This document shows positions 9,352 to 33,735 of a stretch of DNA of 64,000 nt, piece by piece (position 1 is the first letter of the stretch; each line of letters opens with the position of its first letter). The notes below the pieces were generated by a model. That model made no database searches, was not told where the DNA came from, and worked only from the letters and a program-made list of their open reading frames with translations. Position numbers and translations under genes: made by a program. The stretch spans positions 1 to 64,000 of the forward strand of contig CAXBMO010000031.1 of the NCBI GenBank assembly GCA_963977015.1, in the 5' to 3' direction. Source of the DNA: an uncultured bacterium (GTDB taxonomy: Bacteria; Verrucomicrobiota; Verrucomicrobiia; Verrucomicrobiales; DEV007).

Positions 9352-10164
9352 TCAAACTTCGGCGCCCAGATTCTGGTAGTACTTGGCGATCCGGCGACCA
9401 TGCTCATCATACGCGGCCTCAAAGATTTCAGCCGCCTTCTCCGCTCCAACCACCGCCCCCGCCGTCAAGACCTTGGGCGGCTGCCCCGCATCCACCAGGC
9501 GTTGCGCGACCTCGGCTTTAATCGCATTCACCAGCATCGCCCCTCCAATCGTCGATCCGGGAGAAATCGGCGTCTCCAGATTTTCCAGCTTCACCATCGC
9601 ATCGCCAACCGGCGCTCCCGTATCGAGCACCAAGTCCGCAAAATCGCTCAGCTTCTTCCCACTCACATGCTTCGACGTGCTGGCGTCGGAATGGGCGCGA
9701 CTGATCAGCGCGACTACGCGAACACCGCGCTTTTGGAACTCCTCCGCCATCTCGACCGGCACGACGTTGCAACCGCTCGACGAGATCACCAACGCCGAAT
9801 CGCCCTCCTGAAGATCGAAATTCCGCAAGATCCGATTCGCCAATCCTGACACGTTCTCCAGAAACATCGCCTGGCGCTGCCCGTTCGCCCCAACCACCAG
9901 GTTGTGAAACGTCAGCGACAGTTCAACAATCGGGTTAAACCCGGGAAACGATCCATAACGCGGCCACATTTCCTCGACCATGATCCGCGAATGACCGGAA
10001 CCAAAAACGTGAACCATTTGACCGGCGAGGATTGTTTCCGAGAACCAATCGGCAGCGGTGTTGATCGACGATTCCTGGGCTTTGACGGTTTCCAGAATCT
10101 GTCCGCACTTATCGAGATAGTCGGCGGAAGGGCGGAAGGATGAAGGCTGGGGGACGGAAGACAC
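9352..10164 (-). CDS. SIS-domain sugar isomerase-like protein
   Basis: FGSGHS, ISSSGCN and DLVLDTGAPVGDA; in an operon with a ROK kinase. Confidence 0.85.
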   Translation of the reverse strand: MSSVPQPSSFRPSADYLDKCGQILETVKAQESSINTAADWFSETILAGQMVHVFGSGHSRIMVEEMWPRYGSFPGFNPIVELSLTFHNLVVGANGQRQAMFLENVSGLANRILRNFDLQEGDSALVISSSGCNVVPVEMAEEFQKRGVRVVALISRAHSDASTSKHVSGKKLSDFADLVLDTGAPVGDAMVKLENLETPISPGSTIGGAMLVNAIKAEVAQRLVDAGQPPKVLTAGAVVGAEKAAEIFEAAYDEHGRRIAKYYQNLGAEV

Positions 10165-10201
10165 GGTAGTAAGAATGAGAGCGGAAGGATGAAGGATGAA
10201 T
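10124..10201. repeat. GAAGGAT heptamer tract (downstream arm around the four-helix-bundle gene)
   Basis: GAAGGATGAAGGATGAAT at 10184-10201; degenerate copies at 10124-10147. Confidence 0.85.
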
Positions 10202-10579
10202 TTACTGATGGCCAGTCTTTCGGTCTTTGGTTTTCCGAACCATACTCACAAAAATCGCGATGAGTTGATTGGTTTCATCGCGAAGATGTTCGAGTTCATC
10301 AGGCGGAGCAAGCTTCGTCTCACCCAGCAAATCCAGCCAGTAGTCCGATTCATCGAGTTCCTGCAAGGCACCTTCCATCTTGCTGATGAAATCCGCATCT
10401 GACTTCGCCCGACAAGCCTCTCGATATTGGGCACCGGGCGAAGTTCCCGACCGTAACAACTGGCGCCCCAAGACCTGAGCCTCCGTCGACTTCGGTAGAT
10501 TCGAGTAAAGCCGAATCACCTTCAACGCATACCGCTTTGTTCGCCCCCGAAGATCCTGAACTGGTTGCTTGTCATTCAT
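10202..10579 (-). CDS. Four helix bundle protein (23S rRNA IVP / bAvd-like family)
   Basis: DLRGRTKRYAL..I, QLLRSGTSPGAQYREA, DFISKM..ALQELDESDYWL, ETNQLIAIF. Confidence 0.9.
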   Translation of the reverse strand: MNDKQPVQDLRGRTKRYALKVIRLYSNLPKSTEAQVLGRQLLRSGTSPGAQYREACRAKSDADFISKMEGALQELDESDYWLDLLGETKLAPPDELEHLRDETNQLIAIFVSMVRKTKDRKTGHQ

Positions 10580-10606
10580 CCTTCATCCTTCAAATTTCAT
10601 CCTTCC
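10574..10606. repeat. ATCCTTC heptamer tract (upstream arm around the four-helix-bundle gene)
   Basis: ATTCATCCTTCATCCTTC (10574-10591) is the exact reverse complement of 10184-10201; it continues AAATTTC ATCCTTC. Confidence 0.85.
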
Positions 10607-11506
10607 AAAGTGCACCGCGCCATAACACCCGGCCCATTCGCCGAGTTCTGCGGGCTTGATCTTCACTTTGTGATGATTCGGGCGCCACTCGATCTTCGCG
10701 AGTTTGTCCTCGAGCGGCGCGAAGAGTGCGTCACCCGCTTTCGTAATGCCGCCACCGAGAATGATCACTTCGGGATCGAGAACGTTGATCAACCCGGCAA
10801 TGCCAACCGCCAGATGCTTCATCGTTTCGTCCCAATATCCCTGCGCCTCCGCATCACCCGCCAGCATCGCCTCCACCAACGCGCGCGTCGAATCAAAGCG
10901 TCCATTGGTGCGCTTCTCCACCGTGCAATCGCCTACCAAAACTTCCAAACCGCCCGGCGTTCCGCAAATCGTCGGCTCACCATCCGCATCCAGGCTGATG
11001 TGACCGAGGTGTCCGGCGCGACCAATCTGCCCCGTCAGGAGTCGTCCGCCGGAAACAATCGCCCCGCCCACTCCCGTGCCCAGCGTCAGCAGAAAGACCT
11101 CGTCGACACCTCGCGCCGCTCCTTGCCAGACTTCGCCCATCAACGCTGAATGCGCATCATTCAGGACGGCAACGCGCGGCAGCCCCAGAAACGCCGCCCA
11201 ATCCAGATTCTCCAGTCCCTCAAGCCGGTTCGGCAAAAACCGAATGCAAGTGTGTGCCTTGTCCGAAAGCCCGGGCGCGGAAAGCCCGACGACACTCGCC
11301 GTCTCACCCACTTCTTCGTGCAACTCGCGGAGCACCTGACGAACACCAACGGCAAACGCGGGCTCGCCATCGATCGACTCACCATCGCGCGTTGGCCCAG
11401 TCGTTCGCGCCATTTCGGTCCCCAGTTCGAGATCAAACGCCATCGCCTTGATGTTCGTCCCGCCAAGATCAATTCCGATTCCGAGCTTCATTCCCGGAAC
11501 AGACAC
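10583..11506 (-). CDS. ROK-family sugar kinase (glucokinase-like)
   Basis: GIDLGGTNIK, NDAH, LTLGTGVGG, AGHLGH and CGTPGGLE. Confidence 0.9.
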   Translation of the reverse strand: MSVPGMKLGIGIDLGGTNIKAMAFDLELGTEMARTTGPTRDGESIDGEPAFAVGVRQVLRELHEEVGETASVVGLSAPGLSDKAHTCIRFLPNRLEGLENLDWAAFLGLPRVAVLNDAHSALMGEVWQGAARGVDEVFLLTLGTGVGGAIVSGGRLLTGQIGRAGHLGHISLDADGEPTICGTPGGLEVLVGDCTVEKRTNGRFDSTRALVEAMLAGDAEAQGYWDETMKHLAVGIAGLINVLDPEVIILGGGITKAGDALFAPLEDKLAKIEWRPNHHKVKIKPAELGEWAGCYGAVHFGRMKFEG

Positions 11507-26303: not shown

Positions 26304-26477
26304 ATGGCCAAGACCCTTTGTGACTACGCAAAACGTGACCTGGAGAAATACTCGGAAAAACTCCGGGACGGCGCCGCGCCCGAATACCTCTGCAAAAAAT
26401 GCGCCCGCGTAGCCCACCAAAAGAAGCTACTCTGCAAGGCCACCACCTTCCGCCAACGTTTGGCACCTCGAAACTAA
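26304..26477 (+). CDS. Small four-Cys protein (57 aa), absent from the ORF track
   Basis: MAKTLCDYAKRDLEKYSEKLRDGAAPEYLCKKCARVAHQKKLLCKATTFRQRLAPRN; promoter-like TTGCGC...CATATT immediately upstream. Confidence 0.65.
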   Translation: MAKTLCDYAKRDLEKYSEKLRDGAAPEYLCKKCARVAHQKKLLCKATTFRQRLAPRN

Positions 26478-26899
26478 AAAGCAGGCGCAACAAGCCCCAA
26501 TCAACCAAAAGAAGACCCAGGGGGCGAACGCACGATAGAAAGTCAACACCGCCTCCTGGCCTGCTTGATTGTCAGCTGCGTTTGGGAATCCGCCGAGACG
26601 AAGTTCACCTCGCCAGTAGAAGCCGAAAAGGGCCATGGCGGATGAGCCAGAACAGGATCGTGCAACGCGTGATGACTGTGGCATGGCTGAGCCAACAGGG
26701 AGTGCCATCGATCGAACAAATGTGGATCTCCATTCGCTACCCGGACGGACCCAAGAAAGTGCCGAAAGGCAAGTCCGCTAAAGCATGACGAATCGGAACC
26801 GCCGGCTACGGCCCCGTACGGCCGGTGATGTGGGGGGCTGAAGTTCGAACCTTCAGCCTACCCGATTAGCCCTACCCGATTAGCCCTACCCGATTAGCC
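26468..26899 (-). other. Integron attC site interrupted by a group II intron fragment
   Basis: Joining 26572 to the TAGCC after the intron rebuilds (minus strand) GGCTAAC-AATC-AAGCAGGC ... GCCTGCTT-TTTA-GTT. Confidence 0.7.
26573..26866 (+). mobile_element. 5'-truncated group IIC(-attC) intron: maturase C-terminus plus domains V and VI
   Basis: Peptide SRKGPWRMSQN...WLSQQGVPS ending at 26788; DV GAACCGCCGG-CTACGGCCCCGTAC-GGCCGGTG with CGC triad; DVI GGCTGAAG..CTTCAGCC-TACCCGAT. Confidence 0.85.
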
Positions 26900-26913
26900 C
26901 TACTCCATTTGCC

Positions 26914-27516
26914 CTACTCCATTTGCCGGAACCAATCACGCAATGAAAGCTGAAGGCGTAAAACCTCATCTTCAGCAAGCGGGCTGCAATGAGCAATAGG
27001 ACCGCGAAGCGAATTCAGATTTCCCATGATCCGCTCTACCGCCTTCGTGCTGGTAAGAATCCCTCCAAATAGATCCCAATTGCCGGTGATGATACCAGAA
27101 AGCTCGCCAAAGGTTGTGAAGTCTAGTGGATCGTCCGAGCGAACGGTCATTCCGCTGTCCTTTTCTCGTTTGATCCTTTTCTTCACTTCGCCCTGAAGAT
27201 GTTGGTTTACCCGTGAACCATCCCACCAATTGGCTCCTTCGGTATCTTCCAATGTGTCCGATATTAACTCTCGAATGCTCTTCTCTAGACAGTAAAAAAT
27301 CTGGTAGTGCCTAGCCATCTCGGCGGCTTCCTTCCGCACTGCCCGATCAAACTGTGAGTAGTACTGCTGCTGCTCCTCTGATGTTGAGCCTTCAGTGGTG
27401 TGCCCGAGTTCAATATCCTGCTCCCGCTCAACTCTGACGAGATCCTCGGCGATGAGCTGATTTGTCATCCCGAACACCTTGATTGCTGCTTCCTTTTTGC
27501 TAGTCGAGCTCATCAC
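26914..27516 (-). CDS. Swt1-like HEPN domain protein (cassette-borne)
   Basis: FYCLEKSIRELI, LDFTTFGEL..II..NW..F, HEPN motif RGPIAH. Confidence 0.75.
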   Translation of the reverse strand: MMSSTSKKEAAIKVFGMTNQLIAEDLVRVEREQDIELGHTTEGSTSEEQQQYYSQFDRAVRKEAAEMARHYQIFYCLEKSIRELISDTLEDTEGANWWDGSRVNQHLQGEVKKRIKREKDSGMTVRSDDPLDFTTFGELSGIITGNWDLFGGILTSTKAVERIMGNLNSLRGPIAHCSPLAEDEVLRLQLSLRDWFRQME

Positions 27517-32333: not shown

Positions 32334-32537
32334 TGGGGACGGAATTTCTGGGGAGTTTTGTTACGAACCTGGAGATGGGGGCGGAATTTCTGGCGAATTC
32401 CGCTACAACCTGGGGATGGGGACGGAATTTCTGGCGAATTCCGCTACGAACTTGGGATGGGGACGGAATTCTGGCGAGTTCCGCTACGAACTTGGGATGG
32501 GGACGGAATTCTGGCGAATTCCGCTACAACCTGGGGG
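32334..32537 (-). repeat. Five tandem ~40-bp GTAG-type REP units
   Basis: Minus strand GTAG-CGGAATTCGCCAG(A)AATTCCG-TCCCC repeated head to tail with near-identical linkers; the leftmost copy is degenerate. Confidence 0.85.
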
Positions 32538-33590: not shown

Positions 33591-33735
33591 TCCAAATCAC
33601 AGATTCCAAATCCCAAACAAACTCCAACTTTCAAATTCCAAACCTCAGAACGGGTTCGGCGCATTGCTCAGGTTGGAACTTGTGATTTGGAATTTGGAAA
33701 TTGTTTGGAATCTGGTGCTTGGGATTTGGAGTTTG
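33591..33735. repeat. Gene-less inverted heptamer-repeat element (AAATYCC / TTGGRAT family)
   Basis: Left arm AAATCAC AGATTCC AAATCCC AAAC AAACTCC AACTTTC AAATTCC; right arm TTGGAAC TTGTGAT TTGGAAT TTGGAAA TTGT TTGGAAT CTGGTGC TTGGGAT TTGGAGT. Confidence 0.85.

Follow-up and report, generated by a model that had tools for sequence, protein, structure and literature searches.

A gene enclosed by heptamer arrays

The window analysed here comprises 64,000 nucleotides from an uncultured bacterium of the Verrucomicrobiales (GenBank assembly GCA_963977015.1, contig CAXBMO010000031.1, positions 1 to 64,000). On its minus strand, the gene for a ROK-family sugar kinase (10583-11506; PF00480, E 7e-45) lies upstream of a gene for a SIS-domain protein of the PRK02947 type (9352-10164; PF13580, E 1.6e-35; NF002805, 277 bits), and between these two host genes lies a short gene for a four-helix-bundle (4HB) protein of 125 amino acids (10202-10579; PF05635/TIGR02436). 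The latter is enclosed by a perfect 18-nucleotide inverted repeat of GAAGGAT heptamers (10184-10201 / 10574-10591), with GAAGGAT as the unit on its 5' side and the complement on its 3' side. We refer to the whole segment of about 480 nucleotides, composed of 5' heptamer arms, the 4HB gene and 3' heptamer arms (10126-10606, minus strand), as the cassette. It has the 4HB gene as its sole open reading frame (ORF), sits exactly at the junction of the two host genes and in their orientation, and replaces a native overlap of the ROK stop with the SIS start.

The bracketing repeat had been pointed out in an earlier note made from the letters of this DNA alone, and its coordinates are confirmed. It extends to 31 nucleotides at 84% complementarity, and a second, outer inverted pair is found at 10135-10149 / 10577-10591 (15 nucleotides, 93%). 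Both sides are also picked out by Tandem Repeats Finder as arrays of period 7, one at 10184-10200 (2.4 copies with 100% matches) and the other at 10575-10605 (4.4 copies, 75%). With up to two mismatches allowed, the 18-mer has two matches in the window and none in any of 100 dinucleotide-preserving shuffles, and its 14-mer core GAAGGATGAAGGAT occurs exactly twice in the 6,885,723-base genome, namely in the two arms.

The arms double as parts of the genes around them. On the minus strand the 5' junction reads ...CAC TTT GGA AGG ATG AAA TTT GAA GGA TGA AGG ATG AAT GAC, such that the ROK tail GRMKFEG, the ROK stop, an AGGA motif and the 4HB start codon are all built of heptamers. The outer 5' arm GGAAGGATGAA (10596-10606) codes for ROK residues G-R-M-K and pairs with 10134-10144 in the minimum-free-energy (MFE) and centroid folds, and the inner 5' arm GAAGGATGAAGGATGAAT (10574-10591) holds the ROK TGA (10583-10585), the AGGA, which resembles a Shine-Dalgarno motif, and the 4HB ATG (10577-10579). 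On the other side, the inner 3' arm ATTCATCCTTCATCCTTC (10184-10201) directly follows the 4HB stop TAA (10202-10204), the SIS start GTG (10162-10164) comes after this arm and before the outer one, and the outer 3' arm (CAGCC)TTCATCCTTCC (10134-10149) codes for the ..PSSF.. of the heptamer-derived SIS N-terminus ..PSSFRPS... The placement of the ROK stop and the 4HB start within the repeat, and the coding of GRMKFEG and PSSFRPS by heptamers, had likewise been noticed earlier, and both can be read directly from the minus strand.

Since 7 is not a multiple of 3, a unit containing a stop codon closes all reading frames within 21 nucleotides; GAAGGAT provides the stop TGA in all frames as well as AGGA and ATG, and its complement ATCCTTC is open in all frames. 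Thus, the purine-rich 5' array, with its TGA in every frame, its AGGA and its ATG, ends the ROK gene and starts the cassette gene, and the pyrimidine-rich 3' array, free of stop codons, is read as a new SIS N-terminus. By comparison with empty sites, the last seven codons and the stop of ROK and the first 13 or so codons of SIS derive from the cassette, which is a warning for annotation: the termini of genes that neighbour such cassettes can be cassette-derived.

The family of the 4HB protein was named in the 1990s from ribosomal RNA intervening sequences (IVS), and to our knowledge it still has no known function. The protein exceeds the cut-offs of PF05635 in Pfam (65.2 bits, cut-off 33.8) and of NCBIfam TIGR02436 "four helix bundle protein" (89 bits, cut-off 24), and AlphaFold2 predicts four helices (10-27, 32-56, 61-87 and 93-123) with a predicted local distance difference test score (pLDDT) of 93.3. 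The best Foldseek matches of this model are 2RLD (E 6.6e-7, TM-score 0.79-0.91) and 2GSC (E 3.9e-4), each deposited with five chains, followed by Avd, a protein of diversity-generating retroelements (DGRs; 4DWL, E 3.4e-3, TM-score 0.74-0.83), and then by entries of the DGR ribonucleoprotein. The earlier assignment to the 23S IVS family is therefore borne out by the profile matches, and the likeness to Avd by Foldseek at the level of the fold only; the sequence profile of the 4HB protein gave no match to Avd at E <= 1, and neither PADLOC nor PHROGs returned a match. A Xanthomonas protein of the PF05635 family is called a homopentamer in a paper on the Coxiella IVS (PMC4990558).

The 4HB gene is under purifying selection, with a ratio of nonsynonymous to synonymous divergence (dN/dS) of 0.08 at a dS of 0.76 against the copy in a genome of the same genus (G003). 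Between the same two genomes each inner arm keeps 17 of its 18 bases, far above the conservation of synonymous sites (proportion of synonymous differences, pS, 0.48).

The cassette as an acquired insert

A comparison of orthologous ROK-SIS loci for empty sites, proposed in the earlier note as a check, supports an insert. The SIS protein was searched in 61 genomes (60 relatives and the window genome) and found in 41, and 30 loci were fetched. ROK adjoins SIS in 20 of these 30, and 17 of the 20 have no 4HB gene; the three filled ones belong to the window genome (G000), to G003 of the same genus, in which the 4HB protein is 89% identical, and to G015 of another genus (65%), which likewise uses GAAGGAT units. 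In G002, also of the same genus, the site is empty and the ROK stop overlaps the SIS ATG (..DFAQQNHES* / MSPSQTYLSKC). The other empty loci have a similar ROK tail, ..FAQ.., and the filled ones end in HF|GRMK(F/A)EG*. Homology to the empty same-genus site (L008) breaks off behind ..GTGCACTTT (10607) and sets in again near TATCTC (10119); the 3' boundary of the cassette is uncertain by about 6 nucleotides. From these tails and junctions it follows that the cassette took the place of some 30 nucleotides of the native junction, altering the ends of both genes. It is, in other words, an acquired discrete insert and not a part of the ROK-SIS operon. In a tree of ROK plus SIS, the filled G000 and G003 (support 100/100) are sister to the empty G002 (99/98), and the filled G015 falls outside that clade, which implies at least two events of gain or loss.

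These loci also bear on whether gene and stem together might serve the ROK-SIS sugar operon as its own regulator or attenuator. The position of the cassette inside the operon and its rewriting of both gene ends would suit such a host device, but it is missing from 17 of the 20 ROK-SIS loci, and its design recurs at unrelated genes (DUF1592/DUF1552, DUF1501/PPC, before a cytidylyltransferase gene, and at a site behind a gene ending in ..LVNKWNDLK). We consider this explanation highly improbable.

The cassette does not fit the familiar kinds of small mobile element either. As stated in the earlier note, no transposase is adjacent: none of the transposase families appears among the six neighbouring proteins scanned (an oxidoreductase, ROK, SIS and proteins of unknown kind). 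The junctions lack a target-site duplication, their flanks (..CACTTT and GCCGAC/TATCTC..) having no direct repeat in common. A transposon or miniature inverted-repeat transposable element (MITE) is thus not indicated, with the 4HB gene as the only ORF inside and no such duplication outside. Integron cassettes and MITE-like elements are also small, promoterless units inserted in the sense orientation, with imperfect inverted repeats and no internal transposase. In integron cassettes, however, a single attC lies 3' of the ORF, whereas here arms consisting of heptamer arrays flank it on both sides, and copies are single and scattered rather than arrayed by an integrase (no search for an integrase was made); an integron gene cassette was rejected on these grounds.

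Recurrence of the design

The window genome contains six PF05635 matches, five of them full-length, and at all five a short upstream array is accompanied by its complement downstream, with a different unit in each case: TTAGC-type/GCTAA-type, ACAGGT/ACCTGT, purine GGAGG/CCTCC, (AGCTTGT)8/(ACAAACA)n and, in the window, GAAGGAT/ATCCTTC. The other sites are DUF1592-family/DUF1552 (two copies), DUF1501/PPC-domain and a position upstream of a cytidylyltransferase gene. Whether other paralogues carry flanking arrays, and whether inverted heptamer tracts elsewhere in the genome lie near 4HB genes, had been named beforehand as checks, and the answer to both is positive. A strict genome scan for long perfect tracts found no pairs at any period; among 521 heptamer tracts scanned there is one exact inverted pair within 800 nucleotides, which is the window cassette; and a relaxed scan gave three inverted pairs, all three around PF05635 genes. 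The sixth PF05635 match (L006; G000:C43:25595-25810) covers profile positions 11-82 only, within a 285-codon frame near a contig end; it has no clear heptamer arms in its flanks and may be a fused or degraded copy.

For a broader view we used two sets. Across the same order, PF05635 matches occur in 100 of 121 genomes, and Set A was formed from 34 loci and the next 60 table rows in order, minus one without a start codon and one at a contig end (92 in all). Set B consists of the 80 best of 288 confirmed relatives of the window protein in species-representative genomes (58-89% identical), of which 76 have a usable start codon and 74 enough flank. RNAduplex energies of 120-nucleotide flanks did not discriminate, the median of mismatched pairs being already -50 kcal/mol, and an ungapped score of complementarity between the 5' and 3' flanks was used instead. 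Its median in Set A is 13.5, as opposed to 7 for 550 mismatched pairs; 65 of the 92 cassettes exceed the 95th percentile of mismatched pairs and 27 the 99th, an upper tail that is inflated because related cassettes share units. When flanks are compared on the same strand, just 8 of 92 exceed the mismatched 99th percentile. A lag of 7 gives the best self-similarity in 57/92 of the 5' flanks and 50/92 of the 3' flanks, as against 6 of 152 windows lying 277-400 nucleotides away and 7 of 92 windows inside the ORF. Gapped alignment finds arms in 76 of the 92 (median 33 aligned nucleotides, 82% identity), the 3' arm starting a median of 3 nucleotides past the stop codon; in Set B, 69 of 74 have arms. 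To see whether irregular units are mirrored, the heptamer blocks of the 3' arm were permuted, which gave p <= 0.05 in 21/54 and 9/48 cassettes, a test biased in that the arms were defined by the same alignment. The cassette design surrounds most PF05635 members in this bacterial order.

Heptamer simple repeats are, according to Rehm et al. 2015 (PMC4692102), over-represented in bacteria, and arrays of this kind could in principle be chance or slippage-generated simple sequence without function. Yet none of the 100 shuffles matches, the 14-mer core is confined to the two arms genome-wide, and the design is present at all five full-length paralogues and in the 65 of 92 surveyed cassettes mentioned above, so that this explanation is refuted for practical purposes.

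Several loci depart from the simple layout. In some of L050, L060 and L062 (Set A) and L135, L144, L188 and L192 (Set B) the arms stand 60-90 nucleotides off the ORF, and in others of them the unit recurs in additional arrays on either side, giving nested or tandem hairpins; a simple comparison of 5' with 3' flanks therefore underrates them. Two close relatives of the window protein, L146 and L155, have an internal stop codon and are candidate pseudogenes that keep their heptamer flanks. In several genomes two PF05635 genes lie 3-12 kb apart on one contig (G013:C132:9809-12625; G063:C38:110949-121077; G033:C13:51132-63536).

The arms are polar with respect to the gene: purines predominate in the 5' flanks, and the 3' flanks are rich in C and poor in G. 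A purine-rich 5' arm is present in 64 of 81 cassettes of Set A and 66 of 69 of Set B. The stop of an upstream ORF on the same strand lies inside the 5' arm in 35/81 (Set A, with 28 more at most 20 nucleotides before it) and 52/69 (Set B). Stops in all three frames are present in 18 (Set A) and 27 (Set B) of the 5' arms versus 11 and 1 of the 3' arms, and 28/81 and 37/69 of the 3' arms, respectively, have no stop in any frame. With such polarity, a junction between genes could accept the cassette whatever the reading frame. Among clear-case neighbours 121 are on the same strand and 24 on the opposite one, which does not lie far above the usual co-orientation in bacteria and comes from a crude count of open frames with many unclear cases.

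The best 80 relatives of the window protein span at least eight phylum-level groups, with close relatives at 58-70% identity. Record titles in Set B name Verrucomicrobiota, Blastocatellia/Pyrinomonadaceae, Acidobacteriota, Anaerolineales/Chloroflexota, Proteobacteria, Alphaproteobacteria, Porticoccaceae, Acidimicrobiaceae, KSB1, Thermoguttaceae, Pontiellaceae and Pseudanabaena, and the 73 relatives with an upstream ORF on the same strand fall into 32 distinct contexts. Throughout, the unit stays of the GA[AG][GT]GAT type: GAAGGAT (18), GAGGGAT (9), GAATGAT (8) and close variants. To judge from the sequences, gene and arms travel together, because close relatives carry the design in many phyla and many gene contexts. 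The two arms also change together, as can be seen at the ..LVNKWNDLK site, where proteins of another subfamily are 48-59% identical and the units differ, but in every case the 3' arm fits its own 5' arm. This site is one of two recurrent insertion sites in the order, the upstream gene ending in ..LVNKWNDLK at one (L040, L054, L055, L065) and in ..KMEKPVGST at the other (L038, L039, L041, L046), with 4HB proteins that are 48-72% identical.

Heptamer-armed PF05635 cassettes are accordingly widespread and apparently mobile, and in the literature searched we did not find them described as a class. Most members of the family in the surveyed order sit in protein-coding operons with a stereotyped architecture, that is, co-evolving arms, a 7-nucleotide period, strand polarity and a stop codon supplied upstream, and what was a curiosity of annotation becomes an element class that can be tested.

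Possible roles of the arms

The closest described relative is the IVS in the 23S ribosomal RNA of Coxiella (PMC4990558, 2016). It is 428 nucleotides long, contains the S23p ORF and has a 28-bp terminal stem that is cut mid-stem by RNase III; three tandem GACAGAT heptamers precede the S23p ATG, their number varies by strain, and the 5' cut is at the first repeat. Both elements thus have an ORF of the PF05635 family between complementary ends that pair into a long stem (predicted in our case), tandem heptamers directly upstream of the ATG (GACAGAT in Coxiella, GAAGGAT in the window) and a sense insertion in a host transcript, and the Coxiella IVS is described as a horizontally acquired selfish element. 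They differ in that the host is the mRNA of a ROK-SIS operon here and helix 45 of 23S rRNA there, so that by its location between two protein-coding genes the cassette is not an ORF-bearing 23S rRNA IVS proper, for all its predicted enclosing stem and upstream heptamers. Moreover, the window arms double as the neighbours' stop codon, likely ribosome-binding site, start codon and coding sequence; the window ORF is under the constraint given above, but that of Coxiella is said to be in decay and not translated; and RNase III cleavage is shown in Coxiella, whereas for the cassette it would be expected by analogy. In the accessible text of that paper the heptamer arms are not generalised to the family, and in the literature searched, subscription journals and supplements aside, we found no link of inverted heptamer arrays to PF05635 genes beyond the Coxiella IVS.

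By this analogy, we propose that the cassette is an IVS-type, heptamer-armed element living in mRNA, whose stem would serve as an RNase III substrate and/or keep the flanking cistrons adjacent, and we put the probability of this reading at roughly 60%. The cassette would be promoterless and transcribed within the host operon. In the operon RNA, its arms would pair into an inner helix of 18 bp and an outer one of 11 bp with the ORF looped out, and the stem would bring the ROK stop and the SIS start together at one junction. RNase III processing and/or control of cassette translation would be the likely consequence, and the Avd-like protein, which by its homologues may be pentameric, would probably recognise the heptamer arrays. 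Such a design would account for the persistence of a selfish gene that has no promoter within essential operons, whose function it leaves intact.

A two-tier closing stem of exactly this kind is kept in both the predicted MFE and centroid folds, and the window genome has an RNase III gene (G000:C15:110943-111314). The earlier note had suggested a selfish or regulatory element whose RNA stem loops out the ORF; this is partly supported, in that the insert is discrete and the closing stem is present in the predicted folds. An RNA-level role of the arms, although based on analogy, is plausible.

A number of observations weigh against this proposal. The fold energy of the whole cassette is unremarkable (z = -1.53), and 7 of 100 shuffles fold as well. 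Among the arm mismatches of 76 cassettes there are 90 of the G.U type and 147 of the A.C type, hence no excess of sense-strand wobble; the ratio of A.C-type to G.U-type mismatches, 1.6, compares with about 1.5 expected from base composition, and since the spectrum matches composition, the sense RNA is not singled out as the selected strand. In Set A the distance from the end of the 5' arm to the ATG has a median of 22.5 nucleotides, so that the arm does not as a rule occlude the start codon. No arms are detected by the criterion used in 11 of 92 cassettes of Set A and 5 of 74 of Set B. The tree of the ROK-SIS loci would require either two gains at one point or one old gain followed by several losses. 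Finally, no protein column tracks the change from GAAGGAT to GAGGGAT (7 versus 19 sequences, at least three origins), so that recognition of the unit by the protein stays putative; columns 113 and 116 do separate GAATGAT-type units, in a single clade only.

The arms might instead act at the DNA level. As terminal repeats, or as a single-strand or cruciform hairpin, they would allow host recombination, slippage or an enzyme acting in trans to insert and excise the cassette, and the RNA stem would be no more than a by-product. The missing wobble signature agrees with this, although the spectrum, explained as it is by base composition, does not discriminate between RNA and DNA. Several further observations agree with such an element: the cassette clearly moves, as evidenced by its 32 contexts, its spread over at least eight phylum-level groups and the coexistence of filled and empty alleles; the arms lie exactly at the ends of the inserted segment; and the window also holds a gene-less heptamer hairpin at 33591-33730. 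On the other hand, no transposase or recombinase is encoded by the cassette or by the six scanned neighbours, the junctions show no target-site duplication, and the strong polarity of the arms is not predicted by a purely DNA-symmetric role. We regard a DNA-level role as doubtful, while noting that it is compatible with the reading that we favour.

The gene-less hairpin just mentioned has arms of 51 nucleotides (33591-33641 / 33680-33730) that are 75% complementary and enclose a 38-nucleotide loop; its units are ATTCCAA/TTGGAAT, and Tandem Repeats Finder reports a period of 7 with 9.4 copies at 33673-33735. Possibly the hairpin is related to the cassette arms, either as a decayed form or as one without an ORF.

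The relation between protein and unit leads to another possibility, in which the arms are arrays of binding sites for the putatively pentameric protein of the cassette itself, used in autoregulation or in assembly of a ribonucleoprotein; a stem would not be needed, and the arms would look complementary only since both fit one specificity. The unit type does follow the protein subfamily: in Sets A and B combined, units agree with at most one mismatch in 42-55% of pairs at 45% protein identity or more and in 1.3-4% of pairs below, which is a sharp step. Within the subfamily of the window protein, about 88% of 75 cassettes from various phyla agree at unit positions 1, 2, 6 and 7, a value inflated by rotation of each unit to the reference. 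Arrays most often have five units in Set B (23/74 of the 5' flanks, 32/74 of the 3' flanks), the number of chains in 2RLD and in 2GSC. Avd, in turn, sits against RNA in the DGR ribonucleoprotein, where a barrel-shaped Avd oligomer is reported to contact structured RNA flanking the template (10.1101/2023.10.23.563531). Direct repeats, however, would serve such a module equally well, and yet the arrays are inverted, as the 27 versus 8 of 92 cassettes above the 99th percentile indicate. The two arms, furthermore, differ in sequence as single-stranded RNA, which would keep one protein from reading both; the unit change is not accompanied by covariation at any residue; and co-inheritance alone explains much of the link between protein and unit. 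Overall we hold this explanation to be unlikely, and it too is compatible with an IVS-type cassette in mRNA. For binding studies, it is of use that the arrays define concrete candidate ligands, (unit)n RNA or DNA.

The cassette protein shares the four-helix-bundle fold of Avd (PDB 4DWL; DGR ribonucleoprotein 8UB7 and related entries), but no reverse transcriptase, template or variable repeat adjoins the window 4HB gene. The three RVT_1 matches in the window genome (C17, C18 and C6:343960) are on other contigs or 34 kb away. The candidate that it is a DGR accessory protein was accordingly rejected, the fold being that of Avd and the DGR context being absent from the window locus.

Heptamer repeats outside such cassettes have been reported from Xanthomonas (inverted pairs of GGGAATC) and Nostoc (GGGGA(T/C)T), both by Rehm et al. 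2015 (PMC4692102), and from Beggiatoaceae (TAACTGA; MacGregor 2015, PMC4679880). As described in the two papers, these resemble the cassette arms in that arrays of about four units are mostly intergenic among co-oriented genes and often form convergent pairs able to fold into stem-loops; the hairpin at 33591-33730 of the window is of this sort. They are treated there as G-quadruplex or regulatory motifs, whereas each cassette pair encloses a gene and the unit differs per cassette; the terms S23, intervening and helix bundle do not occur in the text of these papers available to us.

In a more tentative vein, these strands may be drawn into one scheme, in which PF05635 proteins would be ring-shaped, unit-specific readers of heptamers, five subunits corresponding roughly to five 7-nucleotide units. 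Gene and arms may then together be a mobile unit complete in itself, which inserts between genes in bacteria at large; the arms may terminate any upstream frame and the stem rejoin the neighbouring cistrons; and decay or trans-use of the module may explain the long-noted excess of dispersed heptamer repeats and hairpins, such as those in Xanthomonas, Nostoc, Beggiatoa and at 33591-33730. In DGRs, Avd positions an RNA duplex for cis-primed cDNA synthesis. By analogy, spread through RNA might be possible if arms and protein recruited a reverse transcriptase in trans.

Two further repeats were seen in the window. At 26857-26917 lies a tandem array of the 14-nucleotide unit CCTACCCGATTAGC (4.4 copies, 93% matches), equal to two heptamers per unit; it is situated just after a short GC hairpin downstream of the ORF at 26399-26788, with no complementary array within 26700-27060. 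At 32334-32535 a 40-nucleotide unit is repeated five times (or one of 81 nucleotides 2.5 times; 87% matches), overlapping long open frames on both strands.

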